DNA of 64,000 bases from a bacterium. Lineage in GTDB: Bacteria; Patescibacteriota; Minisyncoccia; Phycocordibacterales; UBA2100. Position numbers and translations under genes: made by a program. This document shows, in pieces, positions 9,637-51,379 of this stretch. Position 1 is the stretch's first letter; every line of letters starts with the position of its first letter. The notes under the pieces are model-generated. The model saw only the letters and a list, made by a program, of their open reading frames with translations, did no database searches and had not been told where the DNA came from. The stretch is from positions 16,328 to 80,327 of the forward strand of contig RFQR01000004.1 of assembly GCA_009924895.1 (NCBI GenBank), read 5' to 3'.

Positions 9637-12600
9637 ATGGAAGCGGGAGTACCAAAAGGTCGAGGTCGAACCTTTGGTGTTGGAAAAAAAGCACCCCCCG
9701 AGTTACAAGTTCCTGTCAAATCATCGGAGGATATTCGACCCAGCTTTGATAAATCACAACTAAAGCCGGCAGTTTCCTATGTAGCTCAGCCAATGTTTTC
9801 AAAACCAAAACCAAAACAAAAAAACAATTCCAAGTCGGTAGGAGCCCCCGCACCAAAGCCAAAGGCACCTGTTGTGAAACCTGAGACAAATACACTTGCG
9901 GATATCTTGGAAAGTGAAGAGGATGCTAAGGCGACTATCAAAGAGGCTGAAAAGGAAACGCCTGAAGAGGAAACGCCTGAAGATGAGATTTCAGAAGAGC
10001 CTGTCTATGGCGCACTCACAGGTGAACTAAAAAAGATGGGCGATCTTATTGTAGAGGGTGAAAGAAAGAATTTATATAATACAAATGTTCCTACTACATA
10101 TATTCCTCAAACTCGTCGTGGGTTTTCACAGTTTATCAAAAAAACATATGCGCCATTTGAACTTCCTGCGGGACCTATTACAATTCCAAAAGGTGATACA
10201 TATTATCCCTATCAGAAGTTTGTGCGTGATTATATGCGCAAAGAATCGCCATATAGAGGTATTCTTGTATATCATGGGCTCGGATCAGGAAAAACATGTA
10301 CGGCAATTGCCGCATCCGAGGCCCTGTTTGCCACTGCGAAGAAAAAGATTATTGTCCTTACTCCCTTTTCGCTAAAAAAGAACTTTTTGAAAGAAGTAAG
10401 TTTTTGCGGATTCAGGCATTTTCAACTACAGAACTATTGGGTCCCTCTAGATGTAAAAGACCCTACGACCACTCTGTTTGCAAATCAGATATATGGACTC
10501 TCGGGTAAGTATATAAAAACGGCCAAACATATCTGGGTTCCTGACTTTCGAAAGCCCCCCTCCGAATCGAACTACAAAACACTACATGACGAAGACCGTA
10601 TGGAAATACGTAAACAAATTCTCACAATGGTAGAATGGGATCCTGTAAAGAATCCGTCAGGTCGTATTCGATTCATTTCATATAATGGTATTTCTGCCAA
10701 GAAACTTATGGCAATGGCGTGCGACACATCCAATAAAAAGTTTTTTGATGATGCTATTATTGTAGTAGATGAAATACATAATCTGATTCGATTGATGCAG
10801 GGGAAGATTCAACCATATTTGACAAAACAAGGGCCCGGCAATAAAAAGGTTCGTAGAACGGTTCCTGTGGAAGAGATTACTCCCGAGCGTTGGAAGCCCA
10901 GTCTATGCACGGAAAGCACAAAAATGTATACGCGGGGATATTTGTTTTATAGACTTCTGTTGGATGCAAAAAACTCTAAAATCATTGGTCTCAGCGGGAC
11001 ACCTCTTATCAACTTTCCAGAGGAACTTGGAATATTAGCGAATATTCTGCATGGATATACAAACACATTAGAAGGTGTTATTGGGCAATCGGGCAAATCG
11101 GTGCAAGAAGATGTAGAAAAAGTTGCTCGTGCGCATCCGCATATAGATTACGTATCTGCAAAACAGGATCCCAGGGGGGGTGGGGTGCGTGTATTGATGA
11201 CACTTCTACCTGCAGGAATACGAAAGATTGAAAATGAAGAGGGTGTTATACGTATTCCAGAAGATGAAGATATTCCTTCAAATGAAGAAATCCTTACATC
11301 TATACGAACTGCATTTGAAGGCGCCGATATTTCCTTTAGTGGGGAGTTGAAACATCGCTCTGTAGAGCTATTACCACCTTTTGGTGATATGTTTACGGAA
11401 TATTTTGTAAATGGACAGTCTATTAAATCCAAGGCTGTATTAATAAAACGTTTAACGGGGCTTATATCGTATTATAAGGGGTCGAGCCTAGAACTGATGC
11501 CTCGTGTGAAAGTGGATGAGATTGTGCGCGTCCCGTTTAGTTTGTATGCACAAAAGGCATATTCATTCAAAAGGTCTACGGAAGTGAAATCGGAGATGGA
11601 GAAAACGCCTGGGCAAACGATTGATGCTGTATGGGCACAAGTCTATGAGCTGGGTGATTCGGCTTCTGCGAATAACTATAAGATGGGCTCTAGACAAGCC
11701 TGTAACTTTGCATTTCCTCCAGGTGTAACACGGCCTTCTGCGAGTGCTATTGATTTGAAACAAGAAGCCGAGGCGGGGGAGAGTTTCACGGGAATCACGG
11801 ATACTCCTACGGAAGAAAAGTATGCGGACGACGAACTTCAACTGACGAATGATGAACTCATGGATGTGTCTGAAATAGCAAAGGAGGATGACACGATTGA
11901 AGAGACATTATATGAAGTAGAAGACGTAGAAGTATCCGCTAAGCCTGCCGTGAAGCCTGCCGTGAAGCCTGCCGTGAAGCCTGCCGTGAAGCCTGCAGGA
12001 CAAACACGTAAAGCAAATACCCCTACAGGTGATATTCGCTTTTCAAATAAGTTAGAAAATGAATATAAAGTATTTGATACATATGCACCAACTCCATTTA
12101 CAATTACGACAGGAGGTCATACCGATACATTTCCAACGATAGAACATTATTATCAGGCTATGAAATTTAAGACTACAGATCCTGACTGGTATAAAACAGT
12201 GCGTGACGCGCCTACACCTGCAAAAGCAAGGGAGTTAGGGGGTGAAAAGGGACATCCTGTGAATCCGAACTTTATGGCGAGCCGTTTGGAATATATGAAG
12301 CGAGCCATGGATATTAAGTTTGGCTCAAATAAAGAGTTAGCAGCCCTGCTTCTTTCAACTGGCGATAAAAAACTTATACAAGCATCTCCTGTCAATAGCT
12401 TTTGGGGGGAAGGTGGTGAAAAAATGGGGGAAAATCATCTTGGCAAAATGCTTATGGAAGTGCGCGGTGAACTGAAGCTAATAGAAGGTATGCCGGATCT
12501 GGAAGGTGGTGATCCAAGCGATATAGAATGTAAAGCTGGAACAAAACCTGGAGAGAAATATCCGGCAGCGTGTGCAAGGGCCAAAGAATGTTTGAAAACA

Positions 12601-13842
12601 ATTGCAAAAGAATACATGAAACTGGAAAGTAAAGATGGTTTACAAAACTATTCGGCAAAATATGCGGCCATGCTTGAGCGTATAGTAGCAGCCCCCGGGT
12701 CTTCCCTTGTATATAGTCAGTTTCTCGATATGGAGGGGATTGGTATTTTCCGTGTGGCAATGGAAGTGAATGGATATGCTCCTATTGAGATTACATCTAT
12801 GGGGGGCGCATTAGTATTTACAAAGGCTACAGAGGAATCTTTGCGCAAGAATCCAACACAGCCACGATATATGACCTTTTCAGGAAAAGAAGAACCCGAA
12901 GTGCGCCGCGCGGCGCTAGATATATTTAATGCAAAGTTCGAAGAACTTCCTGAGTCGATGCATAAAATACTATCGGAATCTGGGTATACAGATAATAAAA
13001 AGGGGGAGTTATGTCGTGTATTTTGTATTACATCTGCCGGCGCAGAAGGATTGTCTCTTCGCAATGTCCGTGCGGTTCATATCATGGAACCATATTGGAA
13101 TGAAGTGCGATTAAGACAAGTGAAGGGGCGCGCCATTCGTATTGGCAGTCATTTGGATTTACCAGAGGATCAGCGAGACGTGAGTATTTACACATATATC
13201 TCTTGTTTTTCAGAGAGGGCTCAAAAAGACCGCACAGGTGAATATAAGATTGATGAAACACTATTGCTTCATGATAGTGTCGATGCATCAAAAGCAATGG
13301 CCGTTGGACTTCCTATAAAGCCGGATATGACAACGTATGTGCTAACGACGGATGAAATGATCTATACGATTTCTGAGAGAAAACGGAAGATTATTGAAGC
13401 ACTTGAATGTATTATGAAAGCTGCGGCAGTAGATTGTGAACTGAGCTATAAACAAAATAAGGATGGGAAGTTCGAATGCCTCCCTTTAGAGGGGGCGGTG
13501 GGTGATTTTATATACGACCCTATATTGGAACAGGATATATTGGCTTCTGCAGGGAAGTTTAATGATAATGATATATGCGTAGGAAGTATAAAGCCAAATG
13601 AGTTTTTTAAGGTTGTAAATAAAGTTGCATATTTATTAAAAGAGGTTGTGAACGAGGAAGGCACAGTAATACGATATGATGCGTATGAGGCAATACAGAA
13701 GAAGGACCCAAAAAATCCTGAAAAAATTGTTGCAGAGAAGAAGATTCCTGAGAAAAAACTGGGAACGGTGGGAGTGCGCATGATAGAGGGAGTGCCACAA
13801 CCAGGTCCGCCTGTGAATATTCCTAAGCCGGTAGCGAAGTAA
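9637..13842 (+). CDS. D6/D11-like SNF2-family helicase (poxvirus early transcription factor small subunit-like) with an internal NADAR (YbiA/DUF1768) domain
   Basis: YPYQKFVRDYM...RGILVYHGLGSGKTCTAIAASEALF (Walker A), VVDEIHNL (DEXH), GLSGTPLIN, TSAGAEGLSL, QVKGRAIRIGSH (helicase motifs V-VI). Between the two RecA lobes (nt ~12031-12480): FSNKLENEYKVFD...EHYYQAMKF...PAKAREL...MKRAMDIKF...LLLSTGDKKLIQASPVNSFWGEGGEKMGENHLGKMLMEVR. That inserted segment matches NADAR. Confidence 0.9.
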   Translation: MEAGVPKGRGRTFGVGKKAPPELQVPVKSSEDIRPSFDKSQLKPAVSYVAQPMFSKPKPKQKNNSKSVGAPAPKPKAPVVKPETNTLADILESEEDAKATIKEAEKETPEEETPEDEISEEPVYGALTGELKKMGDLIVEGERKNLYNTNVPTTYIPQTRRGFSQFIKKTYAPFELPAGPITIPKGDTYYPYQKFVRDYMRKESPYRGILVYHGLGSGKTCTAIAASEALFATAKKKIIVLTPFSLKKNFLKEVSFCGFRHFQLQNYWVPLDVKDPTTTLFANQIYGLSGKYIKTAKHIWVPDFRKPPSESNYKTLHDEDRMEIRKQILTMVEWDPVKNPSGRIRFISYNGISAKKLMAMACDTSNKKFFDDAIIVVDEIHNLIRLMQGKIQPYLTKQGPGNKKVRRTVPVEEITPERWKPSLCTESTKMYTRGYLFYRLLLDAKNSKIIGLSGTPLINFPEELGILANILHGYTNTLEGVIGQSGKSVQEDVEKVARAHPHIDYVSAKQDPRGGGVRVLMTLLPAGIRKIENEEGVIRIPEDEDIPSNEEILTSIRTAFEGADISFSGELKHRSVELLPPFGDMFTEYFVNGQSIKSKAVLIKRLTGLISYYKGSSLELMPRVKVDEIVRVPFSLYAQKAYSFKRSTEVKSEMEKTPGQTIDAVWAQVYELGDSASANNYKMGSRQACNFAFPPGVTRPSASAIDLKQEAEAGESFTGITDTPTEEKYADDELQLTNDELMDVSEIAKEDDTIEETLYEVEDVEVSAKPAVKPAVKPAVKPAVKPAGQTRKANTPTGDIRFSNKLENEYKVFDTYAPTPFTITTGGHTDTFPTIEHYYQAMKFKTTDPDWYKTVRDAPTPAKARELGGEKGHPVNPNFMASRLEYMKRAMDIKFGSNKELAALLLSTGDKKLIQASPVNSFWGEGGEKMGENHLGKMLMEVRGELKLIEGMPDLEGGDPSDIECKAGTKPGEKYPAACARAKECLKTIAKEYMKLESKDGLQNYSAKYAAMLERIVAAPGSSLVYSQFLDMEGIGIFRVAMEVNGYAPIEITSMGGALVFTKATEESLRKNPTQPRYMTFSGKEEPEVRRAALDIFNAKFEELPESMHKILSESGYTDNKKGELCRVFCITSAGAEGLSLRNVRAVHIMEPYWNEVRLRQVKGRAIRIGSHLDLPEDQRDVSIYTYISCFSERAQKDRTGEYKIDETLLLHDSVDASKAMAVGLPIKPDMTTYVLTTDEMIYTISERKRKIIEALECIMKAAAVDCELSYKQNKDGKFECLPLEGAVGDFIYDPILEQDILASAGKFNDNDICVGSIKPNEFFKVVNKVAYLLKEVVNEEGTVIRYDAYEAIQKKDPKNPEKIVAEKKIPEKKLGTVGVRMIEGVPQPGPPVNIPKPVAK
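11938..12000 (+). repeat. Perfect 12-nt coding tandem repeat (aagcctgccgtg x4) encoding AKPAVKPAVKPAVKPAVKPAG linker
   Basis: Read directly. Lies immediately upstream of the NADAR domain. Confidence 0.9.
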
Positions 13843-14533
13843 TAAGGCGAGAGTTACATGTTCCCTGTTCAACGAGGGGGGGATCTGCCCAAAGTGCCTT
13901 CCCTTTATGGAGCATGAGTTGATAATTCATTTCCCAATCTATGATTTCTTTGAACGGGAGAAACGTCTTATTCAAGCGTTTCATATAATCGGTCGTAAAG
14001 AGCATAGAATCCGTGCAACGAAAGACCCATTGATGCGGGGGTGTAAATGCCCGTGTGGGTGCATAATAGGAGGCAGGGGCGCCAGGGGCGCGTGTCCCAA
14101 CACCTTCTCCTAAACTAATATAATCCCACGGCTTGTCTGCAGCGTCTACCAGGAGCGCATTCAAACATTCTACAAAATCTGCACGTAGCCATACATCGGA
14201 TTCAAGTGTGAGTATGAGACCCTCCTCGGTAGATGCCTGGCGAACAGCTTCTGCGAAATTCAGACCCAAACTGATTTCTCCGCGTGTAAGTCCCCACGCT
14301 TTGAATGTAAAGGTGGGCACATCTCTTTTTAAAAAGGGATTATATGCGGCGAAGATTTGTTCTACAGTTAGATCTGCACCCCATGTTGGGGCACAGATCT
14401 TGATACGCTCTGCAGGTATTCCTATTTGTAAAAGATGAGGTAGGAGGCGATCATATCGCTCCTTTTCTTTTATAGGATGACAGAGCACATACACTGTTTT
14501 GACAGCATCGGGCCACATTCTTTTGAGATACAT
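13823..14533 (-). CDS. Putative glycosyltransferase, GT25-like (LPS-glycosyltransferase family)
   Basis: LTRGEISLGLNF...EEGLILTLESDVWLRADF resembles the GT25 GEIGCALSH...ILEDDV pattern. Overlaps the helicase stop by 20 nt (convergent). Confidence 0.6.
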   Translation of the reverse strand: MYLKRMWPDAVKTVYVLCHPIKEKERYDRLLPHLLQIGIPAERIKICAPTWGADLTVEQIFAAYNPFLKRDVPTFTFKAWGLTRGEISLGLNFAEAVRQASTEEGLILTLESDVWLRADFVECLNALLVDAADKPWDYISLGEGVGTRAPGAPASYYAPTRAFTPPHQWVFRCTDSMLFTTDYMKRLNKTFLPFKEIIDWEMNYQLMLHKGKALWADPPLVEQGTCNSRLITSLPA

Positions 14534-21367: not shown

Positions 21368-22267
21368 ATGGGTGTGAAAGGGTTGTATTCATATTTACGA
21401 GGATATCGGCATACTATTGTAACGCACACACTCCCTAGAGAGCCTAAACTTCGCATCGGGTTCGATGCAATGTCTATGCTTTATACGTATAAATCCGATT
21501 ATATGGAGATATACCCGAGCTTGAAAGAACTACAAGAAAAGGGTCACACCCTCGTCTTTATCTTAGATGGTAAGTCGCCTGTCGAAAAAGAGGTGGAAGT
21601 GAAAGAAAGAAGAACTGCGCGTGATACCGCTACACAGCAAGCCACCGTATTAAAAGAACAGCTTGCAACAGCGACACTTACACAGAAGGAGCGAGAGATT
21701 ATAGAGTATTCTGTGGCACGCCTGGAATATCAAGGATGGCATATAACATATGAGATTCGACAGGCATTTCAAAAAACCCTTACGGACATGGGTATTCGAT
21801 TTGTGAAGGCTATACACGAGGCGGATGATGTTCTTACAGATTTAGCAGCGGCACAGAAACTGGATATAGTTGTCAGCACAGACATGGACTTTCTCTTATC
21901 AGGAGTTCCACGTCTATGGATTCCCTTTCGCAGATCATATAATGGATTTGAAGAAATACTACTTTCCGAGGTGCTTCAAGGAGAAGGAATCGAACAGGCG
22001 GGACTCTTAGACGCAGGAATATTGTGTGGTGTAGAACCCCTCCGAGGACGTATACATATAGCTGCACATACGGCGTTTAGTTGGATGCGATATTATACAA
22101 ATATAGAAACACTTCTGCAAAGTAATGTGAAAGATACGAGCCTTGATATATTCATGGATGCCGTCCTCTTAGAAAGTGTCCGAAAGCATTTTCAGGCACA
22201 TCCGTGGGAATCGAGAATTCGCCCAGATCATCTAAATGAATGTAAAAGCTTTCTTGAGGCACTTTAG
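21368..22267 (+). CDS. FEN1/XPG-family flap endonuclease (5'-3' exonuclease)
   Basis: N-terminal MGVKGL, then FILDGKSPVEKE (N domain), then EADDVLTDLAAAQKLDIVVSTDMDFLLSGVPRLW (I domain). Confidence 0.85.
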   Translation: MGVKGLYSYLRGYRHTIVTHTLPREPKLRIGFDAMSMLYTYKSDYMEIYPSLKELQEKGHTLVFILDGKSPVEKEVEVKERRTARDTATQQATVLKEQLATATLTQKEREIIEYSVARLEYQGWHITYEIRQAFQKTLTDMGIRFVKAIHEADDVLTDLAAAQKLDIVVSTDMDFLLSGVPRLWIPFRRSYNGFEEILLSEVLQGEGIEQAGLLDAGILCGVEPLRGRIHIAAHTAFSWMRYYTNIETLLQSNVKDTSLDIFMDAVLLESVRKHFQAHPWESRIRPDHLNECKSFLEAL

Positions 22268-33450: not shown

Positions 33451-35238
33451 CTATTGTGATGTAATATATTGTGCAAGAAACTGATTGCGTGATAGAATCT
33501 TTACACCCTTTGCTTTCGCCGTTTTCATCTTTTCAGTTTCCTGTATAGGACCCTCGGGAATAAGAAGTATGGTAACTTTTCCAGAAAGGGCAGATACTAC
33601 TGTATGGCCTTTTTCCTCTATCATTGCTTCCAGCTCTTTATCGCGAAATCCTGATAAGCAAACTGTTTGCATGTTTGCAGAAACGGGCTTTCCAACAGAA
33701 ACAGGGATCGGATATGGAATATAGCTCACTTCTTTCTCACGCCATGCTGCATATGTAGGAAATGTCTGTAGAAATTTCTGAAAACTTTCCGTAGTCCAAC
33801 CTTCGGGAGGAGATATGTCTCGCCATCTACGAGGATCTGCTTCCACTGCAAAGAGACTTGCTAACTTTATTGTTCCTACTCCTCGTGGCATCATCGACGA
33901 AGCCTGCATGAGTGTAGATTCCGAAACGTTTGAAAGAGATGTTCGTAGATTTGTATATAAGTTCGCGCCTGTTTTGGGCCCTAGAATCTTCGATAGAGTG
34001 TCTTTGGATGCGCCCCATACAAGTGCCGGCCCTGTTATACTCGCAGCTACCAATGCCTCCGCAGTTGCCGGTCCTGCTCCGGGAATCTCCAGCGTTTTCA
34101 GGAAATGATACAGTTTTGCAGTAATTGTTTCTGTCGTTGTGCCTACAACTGTAATATGCGCCTCCCCGTCCCAGACCCATGTTCCTTTGGGCGGAAAGCT
34201 CGCCTCTGCAGCCCCTACAAGAACCCTATCGAGTTTTGGAATCACATCCCCACTTCTACGAATAACCACTTTTGCACCAGGTCCTAAACTATATTGGAGA
34301 ACCGTTCGCGCATTATGAGCTGTGCAGTATTCAATTGTGGCAGAACCAATCACGACCGGGTCAAACCGTAAACGGGGAATCATATAGCCTTGGGCAGAGG
34401 GGGCCCATAGCACTTCTTGAACCGTCGTTTCGGCAGATTGATCTGCAAGGGACATTTTGAATGCTACACAGTCTTTTGGGTTTCGCGCCCGTGTGCTTGT
34501 AGATTCGGACACAGGAACTTGATTCAATCCTACAACAAGTCCATCCGTGTCATAGTCACTCACATTACGCCTCTCTAGTAGCTTTTCTGCTAAGCTTGTT
34601 TCTGTAAGTATACCTGCAGTCACATACCAGGGAACTTCATATTTACGCTCTTTTAACCATTGAAATTGTTCATTGCGTGTCATATATGAATTCATAACTT
34701 CATATGCCACGAAATGTATTTTAGATATATTTTCCTGCCTGGGTGTTTTTTGATGCACTTGTCCATTTACCCAACTACGACTTAGAATTTGACCTTCAGA
34801 CCGCGGAAGTATCAGCTCTCCACGAACTACATCCGTTCCCCGTATAAGACCTTGTATACCGAGACGCACAAGATGTGATATCTCTTGGCCCAGAATACCA
34901 TCCCCACGGAGATATAGTGTGTTCTGTGTAGGATTCCAAAGAGCCGAGAGTCCATCCAGTTTTTCACTCACAACATAGTTTTGATTCTTTGCAAGAAAGC
35001 GTTGTAAAGAATCTTCACCAGGTTTTACCTTATCAAGGGAGGGCATGGGATACGGAAGCTCTACCGCGCCTGGAGGAGGCGCGCCAATCTTTTTTAAATA
35101 CGAATTCTCTGGATCTAGAGCTGTAAGACGTTCCACGAGACTATCATACGCCTCGTCGTCCATCTTTAAAGTTCCACCATTATAATATGCATCCGATGCC
35201 TCTTGTAGCAGCTTTACAATACCTGCTACAGTAGTCAT
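33451..35238 (-). CDS. NAD+-dependent DNA ligase (LigA-type) with C-terminal BRCT domain
   Basis: Adenylation motif SEKLDGLSALW (KxDG). Ia-like N-terminus. OB and HhH regions. C-terminal BRCT VCLSGFRDKELEAMIEEKGHTV. Confidence 0.9.
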   Translation of the reverse strand: MTTVAGIVKLLQEASDAYYNGGTLKMDDEAYDSLVERLTALDPENSYLKKIGAPPPGAVELPYPMPSLDKVKPGEDSLQRFLAKNQNYVVSEKLDGLSALWNPTQNTLYLRGDGILGQEISHLVRLGIQGLIRGTDVVRGELILPRSEGQILSRSWVNGQVHQKTPRQENISKIHFVAYEVMNSYMTRNEQFQWLKERKYEVPWYVTAGILTETSLAEKLLERRNVSDYDTDGLVVGLNQVPVSESTSTRARNPKDCVAFKMSLADQSAETTVQEVLWAPSAQGYMIPRLRFDPVVIGSATIEYCTAHNARTVLQYSLGPGAKVVIRRSGDVIPKLDRVLVGAAEASFPPKGTWVWDGEAHITVVGTTTETITAKLYHFLKTLEIPGAGPATAEALVAASITGPALVWGASKDTLSKILGPKTGANLYTNLRTSLSNVSESTLMQASSMMPRGVGTIKLASLFAVEADPRRWRDISPPEGWTTESFQKFLQTFPTYAAWREKEVSYIPYPIPVSVGKPVSANMQTVCLSGFRDKELEAMIEEKGHTVVSALSGKVTILLIPEGPIQETEKMKTAKAKGVKILSRNQFLAQYITSQ

Positions 35239-41287: not shown

Positions 41288-41728
41288 ATGAGTCGTGGGA
41301 CACGGAAATATTATGCCGGATTATCAAAGAAGCAGGCCACCCGCAGAAGGGGCGAAATCGCGCATAGAAAAACCATGGATTGGCGGGATCCGGCTGCGTA
41401 TATTCCATTTGGAACGGATACGGGGGTGAAAACGCGGCAGTCAGGGTATACGGCCAAATGGAAGCGAAAGTTTCCAGGCGCAAAGTCATTGGATGAAAAG
41501 GCTGCCGCGACGGGGGTGCCTTTGAAATATATTCGCGAATCCTATAATCGCGGAATGGCTGCCTGGCGCACGGGTCATCGACCAGGCGCCACACAACAAC
41601 AATGGGGATATGCGCGTGTGCATTCGTTTCTTCTATGCGGAAAGACGTATCATACAACCGATTCCGATATTGCATCGGAGGCGAAGAAATCTTCCAAAGG
41701 GGCGAGAGATTGGTTTACCAGGTGCTAA
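41288..41728 (+). CDS. Hypothetical conserved-looking protein (146 aa)
   Basis: Distinctive block PLKYIRESYNRGMAAWRTGHRPGATQQQWGYARVHSFLL. Family not identified. Confidence 0.5.
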   Translation: MSRGTRKYYAGLSKKQATRRRGEIAHRKTMDWRDPAAYIPFGTDTGVKTRQSGYTAKWKRKFPGAKSLDEKAAATGVPLKYIRESYNRGMAAWRTGHRPGATQQQWGYARVHSFLLCGKTYHTTDSDIASEAKKSSKGARDWFTRC

Positions 41729-44700
41729 AATCGGATAATGGGGAGTTCTTGAAACCGCGCGTGCGGAACGGGATAACTTACCCGTGTTCTATCGTGCACT
41801 GTTGTCCAGTATACACCATTTTGAGAGCTTTCTAGTTTCCATCGAACCGGGTCACCTTCAATTCCATTGTCAGGATTTGCAGTTGTCCACGTAAAACCGT
41901 CCATGAGCACTGCATATGGAAATGCAAATACGAGTGCCTTTTTATTCATATCCGACCATCCCTTTCGGTAGCCATCCCCGTTCACATCTTGTATATCTCC
42001 AACCCAAGTCCCCAAGGGATTTGTCACTTTGGCATTGCGTATATCGATTTCCTGATTCCCCAAGAAGAAACGAAACTTTGATATATGGACGCTTGGATGA
42101 TCAGGGGAGCGGGTTTTAATGGGTCGAAAACGGATATATTTATAACTATTTCCCTTGTTTGTATGGGTATGAACAACCGCGTCTGCTTGACGAAGGGGCT
42201 CGTCATACATAATGTTTAGATCCCCCCCTTTGTTGCGTATTCTATCGAGGCCAAAGGAGGGTGTATCTAAGGGAAATGTGGATTCTGTTATTTGGATGGG
42301 TGCGCCATAGTTCGTAAATGCCTCTTTATTCGGATTTACATAGGGATTGGAAGTATCTGAAACGGTTGTTGGCATTTTCACAGAATCAAACGATACAGGT
42401 ATATTCCAAGATGATTCAGAAAAGGGTATTACAGCTGTATCATTCGTTTGCATGGGCTTGATAGCATAGCAAGTGGCCCCTGCTAGACCGTTGGATATGG
42501 GTTGTTTGTTGACTCCTGGAGAACCAGTGCCACAGTCCGTTGTGACAGGAAAATATCCAAAGGATTTTATTCGAATACTAGATGTTTGTTTATCGAGCCT
42601 TCCTAAAGAAGATGAACTAGACGTGAGTGTTAAAGAATCTCCATCAAACCCACCATCTGAAAATAATGTTACTTCTAAACCGGTGGGCACATCTACTTTA
42701 TACACCCCGTCGTTTATAATTCCAGATGTTTTCATTGGATCTATACCATACTCCCCTGCCCCTAATGAAACTATGGGTCCTTCTGTTCCATCTGGGTTTT
42801 TACTGAAAAAGGTTGCCACAGTGCCCGAAATCCATCCAGGAGAGCACCAGTGTGCCCCCGCGTTTTGAGCTGCTACAAGTTGATCATATGTCGCAAGCCC
42901 TCCACCGTATGTGCTACATATATTTGCCGCATCTTTTTGCGAAGAACTAGTTTTAACATGAAATACTTCAAATGCCCTATTTCCTGTAGATATTGTATTT
43001 ATATTTCGGAGAAGATCATCTGGGGGTTGCGGAAGAATAGGGAACATGTTCACAGCATCAAATGCGCATTCCGCAAGTTTGGAGGGTTGCATTGTGAAAC
43101 GCATTCCGCTTGTGGTAGATGAACTAACATTATATGTATTTCCAGAAGGTATCAGTGTATCTTCTTGATATGTAATATCACATGTATTTGCGTCAAGGGT
43201 TCCAACACGTGTGATGGTATTTATTTGTTTTTTGTGCAGATTTTTACTTGTGTAATAGCGTATCATTTCATTTAGAACAGCGGTGTCTTTACAGGATGTA
43301 GTTGGACATGATCCTAAAAATCCAATCGCACCTGCAGAGGAAAGTGTATTTTTTCGAAAATCAGGAAGAATCGCGGCAGTAGAAGAAGTTACTGCCGATA
43401 TATTGGAAGAGAGACTATTCATCATGCTAGATAAAGTTGTTTCAACACCCGTTTTAATTTGGGACGCATATTCCATTGGTTTATAAAGTTGGGGTATATT
43501 GTCTTGAATAAATGTGCCGCCGCCTTTTGTAGAATCTTTTGCAGTATCATATTGAATACTACAGTCGGATATATTCGTATGAACATATGTGGAGAGTTTA
43601 ACACCCTTTATCACTCCAGAGGGGAGCGGAGTCGTCACAGGGACTTCTGCACCTGATTTATTATATGAGAAAGAGCCCTTTTTTACCATGACTCCTTTTG
43701 CATTTGCAATCGTAGAATCATAATTTATATCTGCTTCTATATCACATTGATACTTATTTGCTGTAACCGCGCGAGTGATTCGTAAAATGGACCCAGGAAC
43801 AGTTGGATCATTGTTATATTGGTCTGCTATACGAAATAGAACATCCAAATCTTCACATGTTGTTTTATTTCTACATCCTCCACTTGCATTATCTAAATAG
43901 TTGTTGGTAGGCACGGGTTTTGGAAATATGAAAGGAGTATCCCATATACCCATATCGTTTGGCTTAGGCATAAACGCAAATCCAGAAATATCAAATACTG
44001 CATCATCGGAACCCCATAGACCTTTATCTATTGTATATGGGAACTTCGCTGCTCGTGAAATAGATGGTTGGGGTTTATTTGCTACATCATCCCATGGTAT
44101 TTCATCCCATATTATATCGCATTGCATATTATTAAAATAACTAGTTCTTGCAGATCGAATCTTGTCTATACGCAATGTATATTTCTTTATATTCACATCG
44201 GGTGCCTTATTCCCTCCTACATCTATAGTATTTGTTAACTTAATATCTCCTGCGTCTACAGCATCTATATAGTCATTCATTATGCGACGAAGAGTATCAC
44301 GATCATTGCATGCAAATCCGATATTTGTATTGTATGTATATTGTATGGTTGGAGCATAGTTAACATTTCCTGATATTGCGCTATTTGTTTCTTTCGGGCC
44401 ACAATTGAATTCAGAAAGAAAAGATGTGACGCAACGTGAATCCATTGAAAATCCAGAAATACTAAACGTTCCATTCGATGTATCATATGTGTAGAAGAAA
44501 CGACCCACGACTCCTTGAATAGGAGGAAGAACTGCCGCAGCAAGTTGTTCTTCTAGTTTTGCCACATTTGATTCATATGAGTTTCGTGCCTGATCGAGTA
44601 TATCTTGGGACATTTGTGTCGACTTCTGAATATTTGTATACTTGTCTTTTATTTCTTTAATTCTATTTTGTATATCTGTCGTATCGGATTGCTTTTGAAG

Positions 44701-46197
44701 ATCAAATCGCAGGTCTAGAATTGTATCTCCTATGGTTGAAATGTGAATTATAGTACTCATAATATATTTGCCATTCATAGATTCATAGAACGATTGTGCA
44801 ATAGAATCTAACATAGCCTTGTTGTTAATATCGAGCCCTATTCGTTGGCCATTTACCGTGGGTATCATAAACTTAAGGGTATTGACGGATTTTTCTAAAA
44901 GAGATGAATCATTTATATATTTTTGTTTCATAATACGGATCGTGCGGGAATAAATCCACTGTATTATGAATGTGCGCGCCGCATATGGAAGTAATCCAAG
45001 CATATCGTTTGTAAATAGGGTAGAACAATGCCCATTGTTGAATGATTTATTTTCCTCTGATACAACTGTTTTATAATCGGTCCCTTGTACGGACTGTATC
45101 AACTCTGTGCGACAAAAGTGTTCCTGACCTGTGCTTGAACGAATATACGGCTGTAAATCATCATATCGTATATTTATGAATTTATCTATATCATCTGTTG
45201 CGCCCAGAAATATTTTCTTACATAGATCTATACTTCCTTTCATTTGATTCATGGCCGTATCCGTGATTGTGCCAACATAATGGATATTACAATTCATGTT
45301 TTGCAGTTGGTTTACATCATATCCTCCGAGTTCATATAGGAGATTTATAGGAGATGTTATAACGAGGGTGGAATAGAGACTACTATTTGCCATATCAGGG
45401 CGTGCCTGTATCCAAGAGCTTGGAACGCGTAAATCCGAGGCGGCCGAACCATGATTCTCTATGACGTATTCATATACTCTTTCAAGGTCAATAAAAGGGA
45501 AACTGTTTGTAGAAATATTTGACGAACCATTGAAGGATATAACTAACGGCGAAATAGGATATACAACACCATCTACTGGCGAAGGTGTTAGGTTTATAAA
45601 GTTGGGAAATGTGACACTTTGCGTAATATCGGTAGATAAATAACTTTGGGAGTCCACAACCTGTCCCTGAGCATCCACTATGACGGCGTTCATACCTGCG
45701 ATACCACTTAACATTATATTATCCGAATCTCCTCTTCCTGTAAATATCACTTCCGATATTTGATATGTATTACCGAGATCCACCTGCCAATATGCATTTG
45801 AATAGTTTAAACCGGCTTGCCATGTCTTATTTAATCCTATTCTAGGAGTTGTTACACCATCTACTGTGACGGATATATCCGCAGAACCTGAAAAGTTAGC
45901 AGGGTTTACATTCGTTGAAACAGGTTTTTGTAATGCTAGATTTGTTCCATTCATATCTAGCACTTGAATTTGTGATATTCTCAAATATCCGTCACCGTTC
46001 ATCGGTGTATATATACGAACATATCGACCTAATGTAGTTTTTAAAGATTTTAAATAGGATTCCATATCAACATAGTTAAGAAAGCCGTCTGCCAAGGAGC
46101 CCCTGTTTGGTTTAGATATATGCCCACTTTGATGTATAATATATACGAGTAATAAGATAATTCCTATCCCTAACAGGGTGTAGATTATCCAGCCCAT
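41725..46197 (-). CDS. Giant type-II membrane protein (1490 aa) with F5/8 type C (discoidin)-like carbohydrate-binding domains
   Basis: N-terminal TM IYTLLGIGIILLLVYII. AYWQVDLGNTYQISEVIFTGRGD is the discoidin hallmark. A second galactose-binding-like domain sits at the C-terminus. Confidence 0.8.
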   Translation of the reverse strand: MGWIIYTLLGIGIILLLVYIIHQSGHISKPNRGSLADGFLNYVDMESYLKSLKTTLGRYVRIYTPMNGDGYLRISQIQVLDMNGTNLALQKPVSTNVNPANFSGSADISVTVDGVTTPRIGLNKTWQAGLNYSNAYWQVDLGNTYQISEVIFTGRGDSDNIMLSGIAGMNAVIVDAQGQVVDSQSYLSTDITQSVTFPNFINLTPSPVDGVVYPISPLVISFNGSSNISTNSFPFIDLERVYEYVIENHGSAASDLRVPSSWIQARPDMANSSLYSTLVITSPINLLYELGGYDVNQLQNMNCNIHYVGTITDTAMNQMKGSIDLCKKIFLGATDDIDKFINIRYDDLQPYIRSSTGQEHFCRTELIQSVQGTDYKTVVSEENKSFNNGHCSTLFTNDMLGLLPYAARTFIIQWIYSRTIRIMKQKYINDSSLLEKSVNTLKFMIPTVNGQRIGLDINNKAMLDSIAQSFYESMNGKYIMSTIIHISTIGDTILDLRFDLQKQSDTTDIQNRIKEIKDKYTNIQKSTQMSQDILDQARNSYESNVAKLEEQLAAAVLPPIQGVVGRFFYTYDTSNGTFSISGFSMDSRCVTSFLSEFNCGPKETNSAISGNVNYAPTIQYTYNTNIGFACNDRDTLRRIMNDYIDAVDAGDIKLTNTIDVGGNKAPDVNIKKYTLRIDKIRSARTSYFNNMQCDIIWDEIPWDDVANKPQPSISRAAKFPYTIDKGLWGSDDAVFDISGFAFMPKPNDMGIWDTPFIFPKPVPTNNYLDNASGGCRNKTTCEDLDVLFRIADQYNNDPTVPGSILRITRAVTANKYQCDIEADINYDSTIANAKGVMVKKGSFSYNKSGAEVPVTTPLPSGVIKGVKLSTYVHTNISDCSIQYDTAKDSTKGGGTFIQDNIPQLYKPMEYASQIKTGVETTLSSMMNSLSSNISAVTSSTAAILPDFRKNTLSSAGAIGFLGSCPTTSCKDTAVLNEMIRYYTSKNLHKKQINTITRVGTLDANTCDITYQEDTLIPSGNTYNVSSSTTSGMRFTMQPSKLAECAFDAVNMFPILPQPPDDLLRNINTISTGNRAFEVFHVKTSSSQKDAANICSTYGGGLATYDQLVAAQNAGAHWCSPGWISGTVATFFSKNPDGTEGPIVSLGAGEYGIDPMKTSGIINDGVYKVDVPTGLEVTLFSDGGFDGDSLTLTSSSSSLGRLDKQTSSIRIKSFGYFPVTTDCGTGSPGVNKQPISNGLAGATCYAIKPMQTNDTAVIPFSESSWNIPVSFDSVKMPTTVSDTSNPYVNPNKEAFTNYGAPIQITESTFPLDTPSFGLDRIRNKGGDLNIMYDEPLRQADAVVHTHTNKGNSYKYIRFRPIKTRSPDHPSVHISKFRFFLGNQEIDIRNAKVTNPLGTWVGDIQDVNGDGYRKGWSDMNKKALVFAFPYAVLMDGFTWTTANPDNGIEGDPVRWKLESSQNGVYWTTVHDRTRVSYPVPHARFQELPIIRF

Positions 46198-47191: not shown

Positions 47192-50100
47192 TTAGGATAT
47201 TTTTTGTAATACTTCGTTCACTTTATTACTTGGTTTTGCAGTATTATAAGAGAATAAGGACGGGGTTATTCGCTCCACCCCTTCTACAAAGACAGTTCCA
47301 GCGGTAGTTATGGATACTGTATCGGGATCAAACTCTATTACTTCTTTTAAACTGTTTGTATCACATGCATCTGAAAAAGATGCTGTCAGATATGTGCTAA
47401 TACCTGTATTTATTGAAGAGTTGCTTGCAATAGACGATTTCTTCGTAACATCCTTCATAATCATATATTCACACATAGAGGGAGTTCTTGCAAAACTTTG
47501 TTGTATTGCGGTAAGGGTTTGCAGTGTCGTATTTACACTCGTATCATAGGACGATGTCTTACTGGATTGCTTGGAATCAAATGCCCTTTTAATACTTGAG
47601 ACTACATTTGGGTCGCGACAGTTTATTTGACACTGTGGGTTTGTATAGGGTGTATCCAAAGAACTACTAGATGTTAGCCCATATGCATTATTGCTTATAT
47701 CGGTATATGAGGATATACTTATGAGATTGCGTATAGCTGTAGGTGTTAAGGGTGTAGCACACACGGATCCTGCATTGTTTATATTTATTTTAAATCGTTT
47801 TGCAAGTGTATTTGTTTGAGTTACAATGGGATTATATAAAATATCATCATATGCATTATATAACTCTGAAAATAATACATCACATGTAGCATCGATATTA
47901 CTTGGGGGAGCCCATTCATACTTCTTCGTTTTTGTAGTGCCGATTGCAGAAATTTGTGACATTGTACGAGTTGTCTTTATAGTTTCATTGGACGCGGGTG
48001 TCGTGCTTGCATTGTAATATTCCATAATCATATTCATTACAGTTGGATTATTGCATTTTAGTTGCTTTATTGCTTGCGCCCCATATACCGAACATGCTTC
48101 TAAGAATACTTGTGATGCGCCAACGGTGTTCGTTAGATTTATGACAGTGGTCTCTGCTTTATTTACATTTTCGTCGAGGGCTTTCGTAGGATTTGAATCT
48201 ATGATCGGTTTGACAACGGATGATAGCATATTCATAATCTTATCCCCTATCGTATTAAATGTTAGTATACCGCCTACTGTATCTACTGATTGGAGATAGG
48301 GTGTATTTTCTTGAATAAAAGTTGAATCATAGCTATAGTTACTAAAACTATACGAGCAGTTGGGAAATGTCAATCGGATGGCATTCGGCGTGCTTATATT
48401 GGGAAGATTTGTTTGCCATATAGGAGTTGCATTTATATCATTGTCTACTAAGACTTGCATATATGTTTTTGAAATATTTGTAAGGGGGGCATCGAGTCCT
48501 GGGCAATAGTCAATAGCATTGATTGGATATACTGCGCCCAAATCAATTTCAATATATTCATTAGATTGTGTATTATTTCCTAGTTCCCAATAGTCTCCTG
48601 CATTGCGAGGCCCCGTATATCCATCCACGATTGTATCAGGTGTGCTTGCTCTATATTTTTTAGATGTAGCAAAAACAGGTTTGTTTAATGCAATATTCAC
48701 ACTATTGGACCACACAACAATCTGCGAAACTGCAAGGTATCCTGGGCCTCCATTTGCTGCAGGAGTCATACGCACATATCTTCCATATGCGATACCGTTA
48801 TCAGATGTTCTATCTGTTACACCTACCTGTGCTGAAACTATGTCTCTACCCACTGTTGTTTTTCCATTACCTACATCTCGAAGCATTTCTACGTCATAGT
48901 CGCACCTATCTGTGGAACGTGTAACAGCACGCAACACCTTTAGAATCTGGTTTGTGTTGTTACTATTAAACTGTTGTATAAATGTATCGATTTGTCGTTT
49001 GTCTTGGCAGCGGGCGGGACAGCTACCTAATGTAGTTTCGATTGGTAAAGCACGAGGCACTACAAACGGGGCTTTGGGCACATTAAACTGATTTATCACT
49101 TGATCCGTGAAGTCGACATATTGTATATAATCTTGATTTGAAGTTGCCTTTTCCGCCACTTGTGCCCCGTTTGCATCCAATATTTGGATTCGAATCCCTG
49201 CGTTACGGGATGTATTAGGGGAATCTAACATTCCATATATATATACAGTATTAATCAACTGAAGATATCCTAAATCTATATCCACATACTCATCTTGCCC
49301 ATTCATTTGAAATATATTTTCTACTCCATTTAACACAGCGATTGTTCCATCCACGATTTTAGTAGGCCCTTTTCCGCCATTTGAACTGGTAGATCTCGCA
49401 TATTTATTCAACGCGGCGTTTTTACCTACGCTATTATATACAACTACTTGCGATAACTGTAGTATTCTATCATTTGCTGTAAGAGATGGTCTTATACGAA
49501 TATAACGACCCTGTATTTTGGGAACTGATAAAGTTCTTCGCGTAGGATATATTGTTTCCTGTGTTAAAGGGTCTGTATAGGAACGGAGTGGATATTGGTT
49601 CCAATCTTGTGAAAAGTCGTCTGTTGGGGCCCATACACATGTGCTTTTATCTTTTATCTCGTATCTTCTTACAACTTCTTCAAACTGTATATCTGTGCCC
49701 TCTACATTTCTAGATGGATCATACGATACACTTGTCCATTTATAATAACATCCATTCTTTCCACGTGGTTCAATACCTAATACTGTTTTAATATGTTTAT
49801 TTCGCAAGGTTTGATACCGATTTATAGTATCGCGCAATACAAACTCATTGGTGCACAATAACTCCGTTGTTATGACTTTTTCACAAAATGAAAAACTAGG
49901 AACATATCCGCTTTTATCCGCGGCCCTTTTCTCGTATATAGGTCCGTGATTAATCGTATAGTAATCATTATTTGTGGCGACGAATAATCCATCTTTTGGA
50001 TTGCCTACGATTTGATGTTCAACGGATTTTCCTAAAGAGACGGATACTGCATGGGCTCTATCATATGCATCTGTCACTGCTTGTCCTGCCATACCTCCTG

Positions 50101-51379
50101 CGATACCTCCCGCAATACCTCCTACAACTGCATTTCCTCCTGCTCCAAAAGGTCCTGCGCCCGCAACAGCGCCTGCGCCCAAATTCACGGCCATCGTCGC
50201 ACTTGTAGTTGCAAGAGACCGTTGAAATGTATTCATGTCCCAGCCTATTTTACCGGCTTCTTTCTTTGTAACTTCAAAGATTTTGGGCACAGAGATAGGA
50301 GGATCTACGCCTTCATCGGCAGACTTTACATGAGCCGCAGGTGCAGTAAAGTCTGTATGTGTGCAGCCGGTTACAATAAACAGATTCACAGTATTTCCAG
50401 TCGTGGATACTGGTTGACTGACTGAATTTGCATTTTTATCTGTTTCAGATTTGCTGAAGTAAAATCGACGATAGGACACCGTATTTCCAGGATCATCATC
50501 GTATGTGGTCCCGTATGATTCTGTATAGTTATCGCCTGTAATAGGATGGAAGGATACTGTTTTCATTGCGCAGGCGACATCACAGGATAGTTCAGAGGAT
50601 GCTATGACGCCATAAAACATCACAATATATTCAAAACTGAGTCTACCATCGGATAATAACTTTGCATGCAATGTAGATTGATCATAATAAAACTGGGCCA
50701 TGCGATCCATCATAATAGGGTGTGCAAAATCACACACAGGAAAATCGAGTTGATTCGTATTTGTAGGAGGATTCAATCCTGGATCATATACAGTAACGGT
50801 TTTTGGAAGCATTGCTGGTCGCGCATATGTTTGCTTGTTCCCCCAACACACGCCGGCCACTTCATGAAACCCATCACGACATCGTTCACGACAAAGAGCC
50901 CCTACATCGATATCATTACCCCTACATCCCTTCCAGCAGACACCTAAGACTTCTTTTTCATCACCGCTACAATTTTCACGACAAAGAGCCCCTACATCTT
51001 TATCGCCTGGATTACATCGCCCCCAACATACGCCTAAGACTTCATTCTCTTGATCGTTACATTTATCACGGCAAAGAGCCCCCACATCTGTTTGATTACC
51101 TGTACAGTCTTGCCAGCATACGCCTAACACATAGCGCCACCCAGGTCCATATGAATCACAATTCTTTTTTGTGCAAAGTGGTAGTATAACCCAGTCATCG
51201 TCACCTGGATTACAGGATGAAACACAGAGTCCCACGCCATTATGTTTAAAAGTATCCCCATATTTCCTACAATTCTTCTCTCGTTCCAATACACTATGTT
51301 TAATTTTTTTCATATATGTATCATACCTGCAGTTACTCCAATCTTGACATAGTGGAAAACATACGCCCCCACCACCCAT
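47192..51379 (-). CDS. Giant protein (1395 aa) with N-terminal 4x Cys-rich tandem repeat and discoidin-like domains
   Basis: Four repeats of VLGVCWxxCxxxDxDVGALCRExCxxxExE, encoded by DNA repeats at about 50800-51300. YVDIDLG and YIEIDLG discoidin-like motifs. Gly-rich hydrophobic segment GAVAGAGPFGAGGNAVVGGIAGGIAGGMAG. Confidence 0.8.
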   Translation of the reverse strand: MGGGGVCFPLCQDWSNCRYDTYMKKIKHSVLEREKNCRKYGDTFKHNGVGLCVSSCNPGDDDWVILPLCTKKNCDSYGPGWRYVLGVCWQDCTGNQTDVGALCRDKCNDQENEVLGVCWGRCNPGDKDVGALCRENCSGDEKEVLGVCWKGCRGNDIDVGALCRERCRDGFHEVAGVCWGNKQTYARPAMLPKTVTVYDPGLNPPTNTNQLDFPVCDFAHPIMMDRMAQFYYDQSTLHAKLLSDGRLSFEYIVMFYGVIASSELSCDVACAMKTVSFHPITGDNYTESYGTTYDDDPGNTVSYRRFYFSKSETDKNANSVSQPVSTTGNTVNLFIVTGCTHTDFTAPAAHVKSADEGVDPPISVPKIFEVTKKEAGKIGWDMNTFQRSLATTSATMAVNLGAGAVAGAGPFGAGGNAVVGGIAGGIAGGMAGQAVTDAYDRAHAVSVSLGKSVEHQIVGNPKDGLFVATNNDYYTINHGPIYEKRAADKSGYVPSFSFCEKVITTELLCTNEFVLRDTINRYQTLRNKHIKTVLGIEPRGKNGCYYKWTSVSYDPSRNVEGTDIQFEEVVRRYEIKDKSTCVWAPTDDFSQDWNQYPLRSYTDPLTQETIYPTRRTLSVPKIQGRYIRIRPSLTANDRILQLSQVVVYNSVGKNAALNKYARSTSSNGGKGPTKIVDGTIAVLNGVENIFQMNGQDEYVDIDLGYLQLINTVYIYGMLDSPNTSRNAGIRIQILDANGAQVAEKATSNQDYIQYVDFTDQVINQFNVPKAPFVVPRALPIETTLGSCPARCQDKRQIDTFIQQFNSNNTNQILKVLRAVTRSTDRCDYDVEMLRDVGNGKTTVGRDIVSAQVGVTDRTSDNGIAYGRYVRMTPAANGGPGYLAVSQIVVWSNSVNIALNKPVFATSKKYRASTPDTIVDGYTGPRNAGDYWELGNNTQSNEYIEIDLGAVYPINAIDYCPGLDAPLTNISKTYMQVLVDNDINATPIWQTNLPNISTPNAIRLTFPNCSYSFSNYSYDSTFIQENTPYLQSVDTVGGILTFNTIGDKIMNMLSSVVKPIIDSNPTKALDENVNKAETTVINLTNTVGASQVFLEACSVYGAQAIKQLKCNNPTVMNMIMEYYNASTTPASNETIKTTRTMSQISAIGTTKTKKYEWAPPSNIDATCDVLFSELYNAYDDILYNPIVTQTNTLAKRFKININNAGSVCATPLTPTAIRNLISISSYTDISNNAYGLTSSSSLDTPYTNPQCQINCRDPNVVSSIKRAFDSKQSSKTSSYDTSVNTTLQTLTAIQQSFARTPSMCEYMIMKDVTKKSSIASNSSINTGISTYLTASFSDACDTNSLKEVIEFDPDTVSITTAGTVFVEGVERITPSLFSYNTAKPSNKVNEVLQKIS

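Follow-up and report, generated by a model that had tools for sequence, protein, structure and literature searches.

Why would a giant virus place a NADAR domain, a type whose enzymes were only lately found to strip ADP-ribose from guanine and cytosine, in DNA and RNA alike, between the two RecA lobes of a helicase-like ATPase? The question is raised by a 64-kb stretch of contig RFQR01000004.1 (the window), in which one uninterrupted ATG-to-stop open reading frame (ORF; 9637..13842, +) encodes a 1401-aa protein (the query) with this arrangement. A sequence-only reading of the locus had proposed a helicase that scans the viral genome and removes ADP-ribosyl-base lesions. We find a genuine NADAR domain in an NPH-I-like motor, with a conserved pocket in which two acids needed for activity are replaced by amides. 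With a probability of roughly 0.5, by our estimate from sequence and by analogy, it is a NADAR tethered to the transcription complex that binds but no longer hydrolyses its ligand in the query lineage.

Sequence profiles and a structural model agree that the inserted domain is a bona fide YbiA-family NADAR lying between the RecA lobes. Pfam NADAR (PF08719) matched residues 802-947 over profile positions 2-163 of 163 (E=1.2e-27; 97.5 bits, cutoff 35.1), bearing out the assignment proposed for residues ~790-950, and NCBIfam TIGR02464 was also passed (95.4 bits, cutoff 73.7). The domain matched E. coli YbiA (2B3W, E=4e-21) and Phytophthora nicotianae NADAR (PnNADAR; 8BAU, E=5e-9) in the PDB. In an AlphaFold2 model spanning residues 150-1349 (mean predicted local distance difference test score (pLDDT) 77, predicted template modelling score 0.68), the NADAR was modelled at pLDDT 90-97 with the alpha-helical core and two small flanking sheets of the YbiA fold, and Foldseek placed it close to 2B3W (template modelling (TM) score 0.79, root-mean-square deviation 2.9) and to 8BAU (TM 0.69). 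The domain is therefore complete, as had been claimed, in fold and profile coverage, but not in its catalytic residues. Each of the motifs that the sequence-only reading had listed is present.

In PnNADAR, roles are assigned to E43 (distal ribose), K50 (phosphate), E125 (the family-defining catalytic Glu), and D130 and W133 (ribose/pyrophosphate positioning) (PMC11543638, PMC11125620). The query carries Q915 at the position of the catalytic Glu (E125 in PnNADAR and E. coli YbiA, E167 in SCO5665) and N920 at that of the ribose-positioning Asp (PnNADAR D130, SCO5665 D172). It retains E836 and K843, both within EHYYQAMK, and W923, and at two pyrophosphate contacts PnNADAR R79 is replaced by Gly and W89 by Phe. 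This residue mapping was the same in ungapped alignments to 2B3W and 8BAU, in a MAFFT alignment and in a hidden Markov model alignment. The CAA codon of Q915 is common to independent contigs (P0007, P0008, P0010 and L068), which excludes a sequencing error. Fold, E...K motif, WG and G-x-N-x-LG are thus shared with E. coli YbiA, PnNADAR and the Chondromyces YbiA antitoxin of YarT, whereas those enzymes stand alone and have E125 and D130, and the query is embedded in a 1401-aa motor and has changed at four of the positions named above.

Mutation of the acids lost from the query abolishes activity in characterized NADARs. Hydrolysis of ADP-ribosylated guanine (G-ADPr) and cytosine (C-ADPr) was fully lost in SCO5665 E167Q and E167D (PMC12945103), E. 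coli C7 NADAR was inactivated by D171A/N and by E88Q (PMC11543638), and the Asp and Trp of the Asp-x-x-Trp motif are among the residues required for YbiA N-glycosidase activity (PMC9303266). Because Q915 and N920 replace needed acids, and E167Q, E167D and D171A/N are inactive, a lesion-removing helicase is unlikely for the query protein; aligned with E. coli YbiA, the site that such an activity would use is partly degenerate.

As far as sequence comparison can tell, the NADAR is maintained by purifying selection. Among close homologues it is 60-69% identical, against 62-72% for the middle and C-terminal domains and 21-37% for the linkers. DNA comparison with homologue P0002 gave a non-synonymous proportion (pN) of 0.236 and a synonymous proportion (pS) of 0.847 (saturated) for the NADAR, and pN 0.404 and pS 0.730 for the linker. 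Within a near clade of 12 members, 52 NADAR positions are invariant, including E836, K843, N920, W923, E925 and the GEN motif, and the equivalents of R79 and W89 are G/S/A and F throughout. Position 915 alone toggles, being E in five members, Q in four, N in two and D in one, which against the 52 invariant positions argues that the pocket is conserved while the catalytic residue is no longer selected. Since the hydrolysis and ribose-positioning acids are replaced by amides in a pocket that is kept, we infer binding without hydrolysis.

The motor, on sequence and model evidence, is an NPH-I (D11)-type SNF2-like DNA-dependent ATPase. Pfam recognized ResIII at residues 204-243, SNF2-rel at 192-472 (weakly) and Helicase_C at 1098-1170. 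All ATPase motifs (Table 1) are intact and invariant in a 40-sequence alignment (A1), and they are split around the insert just as the sequence-only reading had placed them. Vaccinia NPH-I (6RFL chain Y) was the sole PDB helicase matched, both by the query (E=6e-14, NPH-I residues 408-500 against lobe 2) and by the 40-sequence family profile (E=1.3e-14), whereas D6 gave no PDB match at E<0.001 with either. In a Foldseek search with the model, both lobes were matched by NPH-I from structures of the complete RNA polymerase complex of vaccinia (E=4e-8, TM 0.5-0.59). The next neighbours were the split-ATPase remodelers SWR1, SRCAP and INO80, and a 637-aa chain of the poxvirus pre-initiation complex (7AMV), whose length fits D6/VETF-s, ranked lower (E=4e-4). 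The earlier label of D6/D11-type was right but can be made more precise: we dropped D6/VETF-s in favour of D11/NPH-I, which sequence, profile and structure matches all favour.

Vaccinia NPH-I (D11L; PDB 6RFL, 7AOH and 8RQK chain Y) has, like the query, a two-lobe superfamily 2 (SF2)/SNF2-like motor with the identical motif set. It differs in being 631 aa long against 1401, without the N-terminal low-complexity region, the 240-aa middle domain, the long acidic inter-lobe linker or the NADAR. Transcription ATPases of the NPH-I type depend on ssDNA, bind the viral RNA polymerase and serve in elongation and termination. Identity in the structural alignment is ~12%, and an association of the query with the polymerase would follow by homology. 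The middle domain (residues 476-714) is a folded, family-specific domain that Pfam does not recognize. Foldseek related it weakly to ferredoxin-like (ribosomal S6) and ACT-type folds, which points, at the level of the model, to a small alpha/beta module.

BLASTP against 120 homologues defined residues 1-714 and 964-1395 as family core and ~715-963 (~250 aa) as hypervariable. Residues 476-714 are not part of the insertion because they are also present in orthologues that lack a NADAR. The ~500-aa insert described earlier was thus right in content, holding an acidic region, a KPAV repeat and the NADAR, but about twice too long. Without a NADAR the corresponding linker is acidic, Ala-rich and of low complexity, and its median length over 84 orthologues is 133 aa; the 35 orthologues with a NADAR have a median of 296 aa, longer by one NADAR domain. 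In the query, the ~85-aa tether on the N side contains an acidic stretch (21 D/E among the 86 residues 715-800) that precedes the KPAV repeat, and pLDDT falls below 50 at residues 716-741 and 761-797; on the ~10-aa C side it does so only at 954-959.

No relic NADAR was found in linkers of NADAR-less orthologues by hmmsearch --max (best E=0.12), a result compatible both with loss of the domain and with primary absence. Four of these orthologues (P0018, P0036, P0038 and P0110) have other conserved pieces at the same linker site, such as the motif EYYESRGEEVPPEY, and the insert of P0110 is 459 aa. Within the helicase family, this linker seems to be a hotspot for insertions in general.

The arrangement recurs. 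Of the 120 best homologues, 36 have a NADAR at this inter-lobe site, and on a neighbour-joining (NJ) tree of the core domains they belong to three or more clusters. Two of these clusters are without both catalytic acids (A/M/I...Y at the equivalents of E43 and E125), and some inter-lobe copies are without an internal NADAR segment. Searching with the NADAR part of the query, which retrieved 9787 representatives at E<=1e-3, and scanning IMG/VR revealed a second helicase site: in P0163 and 16 IMG/VR loci, orthologues of 40-50% identity, a NADAR follows RecA lobe 2, between the counterparts of residues 1227 and 1230 of the query. Among the 80 best IMG/VR helicase loci, 4 had an inter-lobe NADAR, 16 a second-site NADAR and 60 none; the 80 included no contig with the polymerase fusion described next. 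The second-site lineage (P0163; L011-L014, L038 and L101-L125) usually has the intact set of E43, K50, E125, D130 and W133 equivalents (E-K-E-D-W), and L013 and L119 have two tandem NADARs.

Two further components of viral transcription and capping were found to carry the domain. The RNA polymerase subunit RPB2 with a C-terminal NADAR was detected at seven IMG/VR loci (L004-L010, for example L004:2041-6984; three of them giant-virus metagenome-assembled genomes) and in P0186, with mostly D/Y/F in the Glu column. An mRNA capping enzyme (guanylyltransferase, cap_C and N7-methyltransferase) with a C-terminal NADAR was detected at four loci (L030:3049-6483, L031, L032 and L035:2953-6450); here a Glu/Lys/Pro-rich linker precedes the NADAR, and Tyr or Phe occupies the position of the catalytic Glu. 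In a rough NJ tree of NADARs, which has no support values, the copies from both helicase sites and RPB2 form one block and the capping-enzyme copies fall outside it, among stand-alone NADARs, which argues for at least two independent recruitments. Vaccinia has its polymerase, capping enzyme and NPH-I together in a single ‘complete’ complex (titles of 6RFL and 8C8H), which makes the viral mRNA-synthesis machine the common denominator of these fusions. The link to viral transcription made by the sequence-only reading is thereby reinforced from other giant-virus contigs. Further viral or metagenomic fusions join a NADAR to a PNK 3'-phosphatase (L034:4948-6786), SLOG (YAcAr) to a NADAR (L028:5389-6411) and two NADARs to a Pif1 helicase (P0171).

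Retention of the catalytic Glu differs among these contexts. Stand-alone single-domain NADARs (<=260 aa) mostly kept it (78 of 85), as did second-site helicase domains (12 of 18), whereas it was kept in few inter-lobe copies (6 of 41, the rest being Q, Y, D or N), in 1 of 10 RPB2 fusions and in none of the 4 capping-enzyme fusions. These counts are phylogenetically non-independent, and we set aside a pooled Fisher test (p=7.5e-21) that takes no account of relatedness and does not include the additional second-site loci. The replacements vary (Q, N, D, Y, F and H), which shows that the Glu was lost several separate times. The nearest non-viral relatives are tandem NADARs fused to EF-hand, ion-channel and cyclic-nucleotide-binding domains or to a protein kinase (P0155, P0158, P0159, P0161, P0168, P0172 and P0178; Namystynia karyoxenos, a diplonemid, is the source of two). 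Since most of them have Phe where the catalytic Glu would be, they may be ligand-sensing, and non-catalytic NADARs seem to exist elsewhere.

In the reading that we favour, the NPH-I-like motor would act, by homology, on the viral RNA polymerase complex, with the NADAR held at the inter-lobe point on flexible tethers, longer on the N side than on the C side. Giant viruses would have repeatedly attached one NADAR lineage to their mRNA-synthesis machinery, at two helicase sites and the C-terminus of RPB2, and would have recruited another separately to the C-terminus of the capping enzyme. At the transcription complex the query NADAR would bind an ADP-ribose-type ligand, hydrolysing none of it or doing so very slowly; candidates are an ADP-ribosylated base, an NAD-derived RNA end, and free ADP-ribose or NAD. 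Its role would be to recognize or regulate while tethered, as a naturally occurring substrate-trap form of the enzyme. Relatives with intact E-K-E-D-W sites are probably still N-glycosidases, and judging by their residues the ancestral and second-site NADARs look like competent ones. This fits the general idea of the sequence-only reading, and a scanning DNA de-ADP-ribosylase is plausible for such relatives.

Several points weigh against this reading. The inter-lobe copies (6 of 41) and second-site domains (12 of 18) counted above as retaining the Glu keep the full E-K-E set, so part of the family is still under selection for catalysis, and the query might make up for its substitutions, for example through the invariant E925 near W923. 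The catalytic position is plastic, with a shifted Asp in DarG1 and a His in active phage NADARs (PMC11543638, PMC11125620), and the mutational evidence comes from bacterial NADARs only ~30% identical to the query. Since the R79 and W89 contacts are changed clade-wide, binding of ADP-ribose may be weakened or the ligand may differ. Membership of the polymerase complex, finally, rests on homology to NPH-I at the low structural-alignment identity given above.

The first of two alternatives that we consider unlikely, to a similar degree, is that the query NADAR is an active ADP-ribosyl-nucleobase glycohydrolase that the motor carries along DNA, clearing adducts from the viral genome or nascent RNA as counter-defence or transcription-coupled repair. 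The complete fold with E836, K843 and W923 would suit such an enzyme, as would the plasticity of the catalytic residue across the superfamily, the intact E-K-E-D-W sites of other members of this helicase family (above all those with a second-site NADAR) and the RPB2 fusion, which fits lesion removal ahead of the polymerase; every NADAR class tested to date, moreover, hydrolyses G-ADPr in vitro (PMC11125620). This is outweighed for us by Q915 and N920, which replace residues whose mutation abolishes activity, and by the variation at 915 amid 52 invariant positions, which is unlike that of a selected catalytic residue. No ADP-ribosyltransferase was found in the window, and we know of no DNA-ADP-ribosylating defence in the presumed protist hosts.

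The second is that the domain is purely structural, docking onto a protein such as a transcription-complex subunit and binding neither a small molecule nor a modified nucleotide. In its favour are the persistence of the domain in the two other inter-lobe clusters that have lost the E43 and E125 equivalents, and in some cases an internal segment, the changed ligand contacts of the query clade, and the use of one domain at several attachment points (helicase sites 1 and 2 and the RPB2 C-terminus), which a docking role would predict. In the near clade, however, the invariant residues include those of the cleft (E836, K843, N920, W923, E925 and the GEN motif), which argues that it is the pocket that is conserved, and the NADAR is not a core structural element because most orthologues do without it.

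An allosteric sensor, in which free NAD+, ADP-ribose or a derivative would bind and tune the ATPase between its RecA lobes, coupling viral transcription to NAD/ADP-ribose status, strikes us as quite improbable. Its attraction lies in the inter-lobe position, where the regulatory inserts of INO80 and SWR1, among the top structural neighbours, also lie, in the short C-side tether and in the Phe-bearing tandem NADARs on diplonemid cyclic-nucleotide-gated channels and kinases. With so long a disordered tether on the N side, rigid coupling is unlikely, and the inter-lobe position appears dispensable because the same NADAR lineage is used after lobe 2 and at the RPB2 C-terminus. A chimeric assembly or two-gene read-through, conceivable for a metagenomic scaffold, is very improbable given the single uninterrupted frame, the coherent AlphaFold model and the same architecture on dozens of independent contigs (JGI, ENA, Logan and IMG/VR).

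A tethered NADAR that binds without hydrolysing can be set beside several known systems. INO80 and SWR1/SRCAP are split ATPases with a module between motifs III and IV, as in the query, and the RING of Rad5/HLTF is a further inter-lobe module of SNF2-family ATPases. Inserts of this class recruit protein partners (Rvb1/2) or carry an E3 ligase, whereas the query insert is flexible and dispensable in most orthologues; none, to our knowledge, carries a NADAR. DarG1, the DarT1-associated NADAR antitoxin, and phage T4 AdfN/gp30.3 belong to the same superfamily as the query and provide a precedent for a virus using a NADAR against nucleic-acid ADP-ribosylation (PMC11825919, PMC11543638). Their catalytic residue is an Asp shifted by two positions or a His, where the query has Leu913 and Gln915, and they have no N-terminal DNA-binding extension of the query's kind.

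A DarG1-type or phage-type identity was rejected for the query. It has Leu913-Ile914-Gln915 where an Asp (EcC7 D171, two before the aligned Glu) or His is expected, and it scored 46.7 bits against a cutoff of 240 with the NCBIfam anti-phage NADAR model NF053876. Linkage to a DarT or other ADP-ribosyltransferase toxin was likewise not seen: in the 64 kb of genome covered, no ADP-ribosyltransferase, PARP, macrodomain or Nudix domain was found among the 44 ORFs of the window. A nematode NADAR protein has been placed in a eukaryotic-type mRNA 5'-end processing context, with one NADAR domain lacking the conserved catalytic residues (PMC9303266). It differs from the query in being without a motor domain, restricted to nematodes and of a different NADAR lineage.

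The sequence-only reading did not know this architecture for D6/D11 helicases. It is common among the best homologues, as described above, but we found no paper on a NADAR in a helicase, RPB2 or capping enzyme of the nucleocytoplasmic large DNA viruses, within a coverage that did not extend to the superfamily-defining 2012 paper (de Souza & Aravind), which may list it. Giant-virus papers name NADAR only as a stand-alone metabolic gene, and JGI auto-annotation calls the combined protein ‘ribA/ribD-fused uncharacterized protein’ or ‘N-glycosidase YbiA’. Both domains are of known kinds; what is of interest is chiefly that the link to the transcription apparatus recurs and that a natural series leads from eraser to non-eraser. 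NADARs in three giant-virus transcription or capping components give a concrete, testable setting for the function of the domain in eukaryotic viruses. The series of intact (E-K-E) and substituted (Q/N/D/Y/F/H) sites could show a split between erasers and readers, as in macrodomains.

These fusions suggest a role for nucleic-acid ADP-ribosylation, or for RNA ends derived from NAD, in conflicts between protists and their viruses, although we know of no such system described there. By analogy, and tentatively, we raise a broader possibility, which we regard as somewhat doubtful: NADARs may be hard-wired into the cytoplasmic mRNA factory of giant viruses, and chemistry linked to ADP-ribose or NAD, on the DNA template or at the 5' ends of nascent RNA, may be a routine part of transcription or a threat to it. 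The query would then be the first natural ‘reader’ pseudo-NADAR, binding without cleaving, as reader macrodomains do in comparison with erasers.

The source is an uncultured Imitervirales-like member of the Nucleocytoviricota. The window encodes a mimivirus-type poly(A) polymerase catalytic subunit, an I7/Ulp1-like protease, many glycosyltransferases and the giant-virus-specific DUFs 5759, 5824 and 5871. Identity with a cultured virus was rejected, named viruses being absent among the homologues and cluster members, and phage database matches being to stand-alone phage NADARs only (30-39% identity). The identical protein is called on its source, an 80.5-kb metagenomic scaffold (ENA ERZ28575157, DAMP20-1 scaffold_109). 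An RNase III gene lies directly upstream of the helicase gene (gap of 19 nt), a synteny shared with relatives, and the order patatin, coiled-coil protein, RNase III, helicase, protease is kept in a 306-kb relative. This conserved local order argues that the helicase is a vertically inherited core gene and not an island gene. The mimivirus early promoter motif AAAATTGA was not enriched (2 matches against 6.5 expected). Coordinates of the helicase features and of other genes in the window are collected in Table 1.

Table 1. Features of the helicase gene and of other genes in the window; residue numbers refer to the query protein
Feature	Coordinates	Strand	Basis or remark
Whole gene, 1401-aa NPH-I (D11)-like SF2/SNF2-type ATPase with embedded NADAR	9637..13842	+	1338 homologues
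N-terminal K/P/E-rich low-complexity region, residues 1-185	9637..10191	+	20-44% identity to close homologues; composition
RecA lobe 1, residues 186-475	10192..11061	+	Pfam, motifs; 80-87% identity to close homologues
Walker A (GLGSGKT), residues 214-220	10276-10296	+
Motif II, DExH (DEIH), residues 378-381	10768-10779	+
Motif III (SGTP), residues 453-456	10993-11004	+
Family-conserved middle domain, residues 476-714	11062..11778	+	62-72% identity; also in NADAR-less orthologues
Hypervariable, mostly disordered N-side tether, residues 715-801	11779..12039	+	21-37% identity; low pLDDT
KPAV repeat	11941-11996	+	perfect 12-bp DNA tandem repeat, 4.7 copies, 100% match; encodes KPAV four times, then KPAG
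NADAR (YbiA-family) domain, residues 802-947	12040..12477	+	Pfam, PDB matches, model
E836	12142-12144	+	retained
K843	12163-12165	+	retained
Q915	12379-12381	+	CAA; catalytic Glu position
N920	12394-12396	+	AAT; ribose-positioning Asp position
Short C-side tether, residues 948-963	12478..12525	+	31-64% identity; pLDDT
RecA lobe 2, residues 964-1200	12526..13236	+	Helicase_C; 81-86% identity to close homologues
Motif V (TSAGAEG), residues 1132-1138		+
Motif VI (QVKGRAIR), residues 1161-1168	13117-13140	+
C-terminal domain and tail, residues 1201-1401	13237..13842	+	second NADAR site of sister lineage at region start
ERCC4-type nuclease with helix-hairpin-helix	1152-1850	+	DNA-repair gene
XPG/FEN-like nuclease	21368-22264	+	DNA-repair gene
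NAD-dependent DNA ligase with BRCT	33451-35238	-	DNA-repair gene
ORF convergent with the helicase gene	13823-14533	-	overlap at 13823-13842
1490-aa ORF with F5/8 type C (discoidin) domain	41725-46197	-
1395-aa ORF with F5/8 type C (discoidin) domain	47192-51379	-
1583-aa multidomain glycosyltransferase-type protein	58030-62781	-	at least 5 domains

The DNA ligase is another NAD-using enzyme. The 3' end of the helicase gene overlaps a convergent ORF by 20 bp, likewise in relatives L002 and L003. Among the larger proteins of the window, one has at least five glycosyltransferase-type domains (DUF2827, GT10 fucosyltransferase, GT25, GT47 exostosin and RXYLT1). The two discoidin-domain ORFs, one of which also has an Xlink (hyaluronan-binding) domain, may encode surface or fibre proteins.

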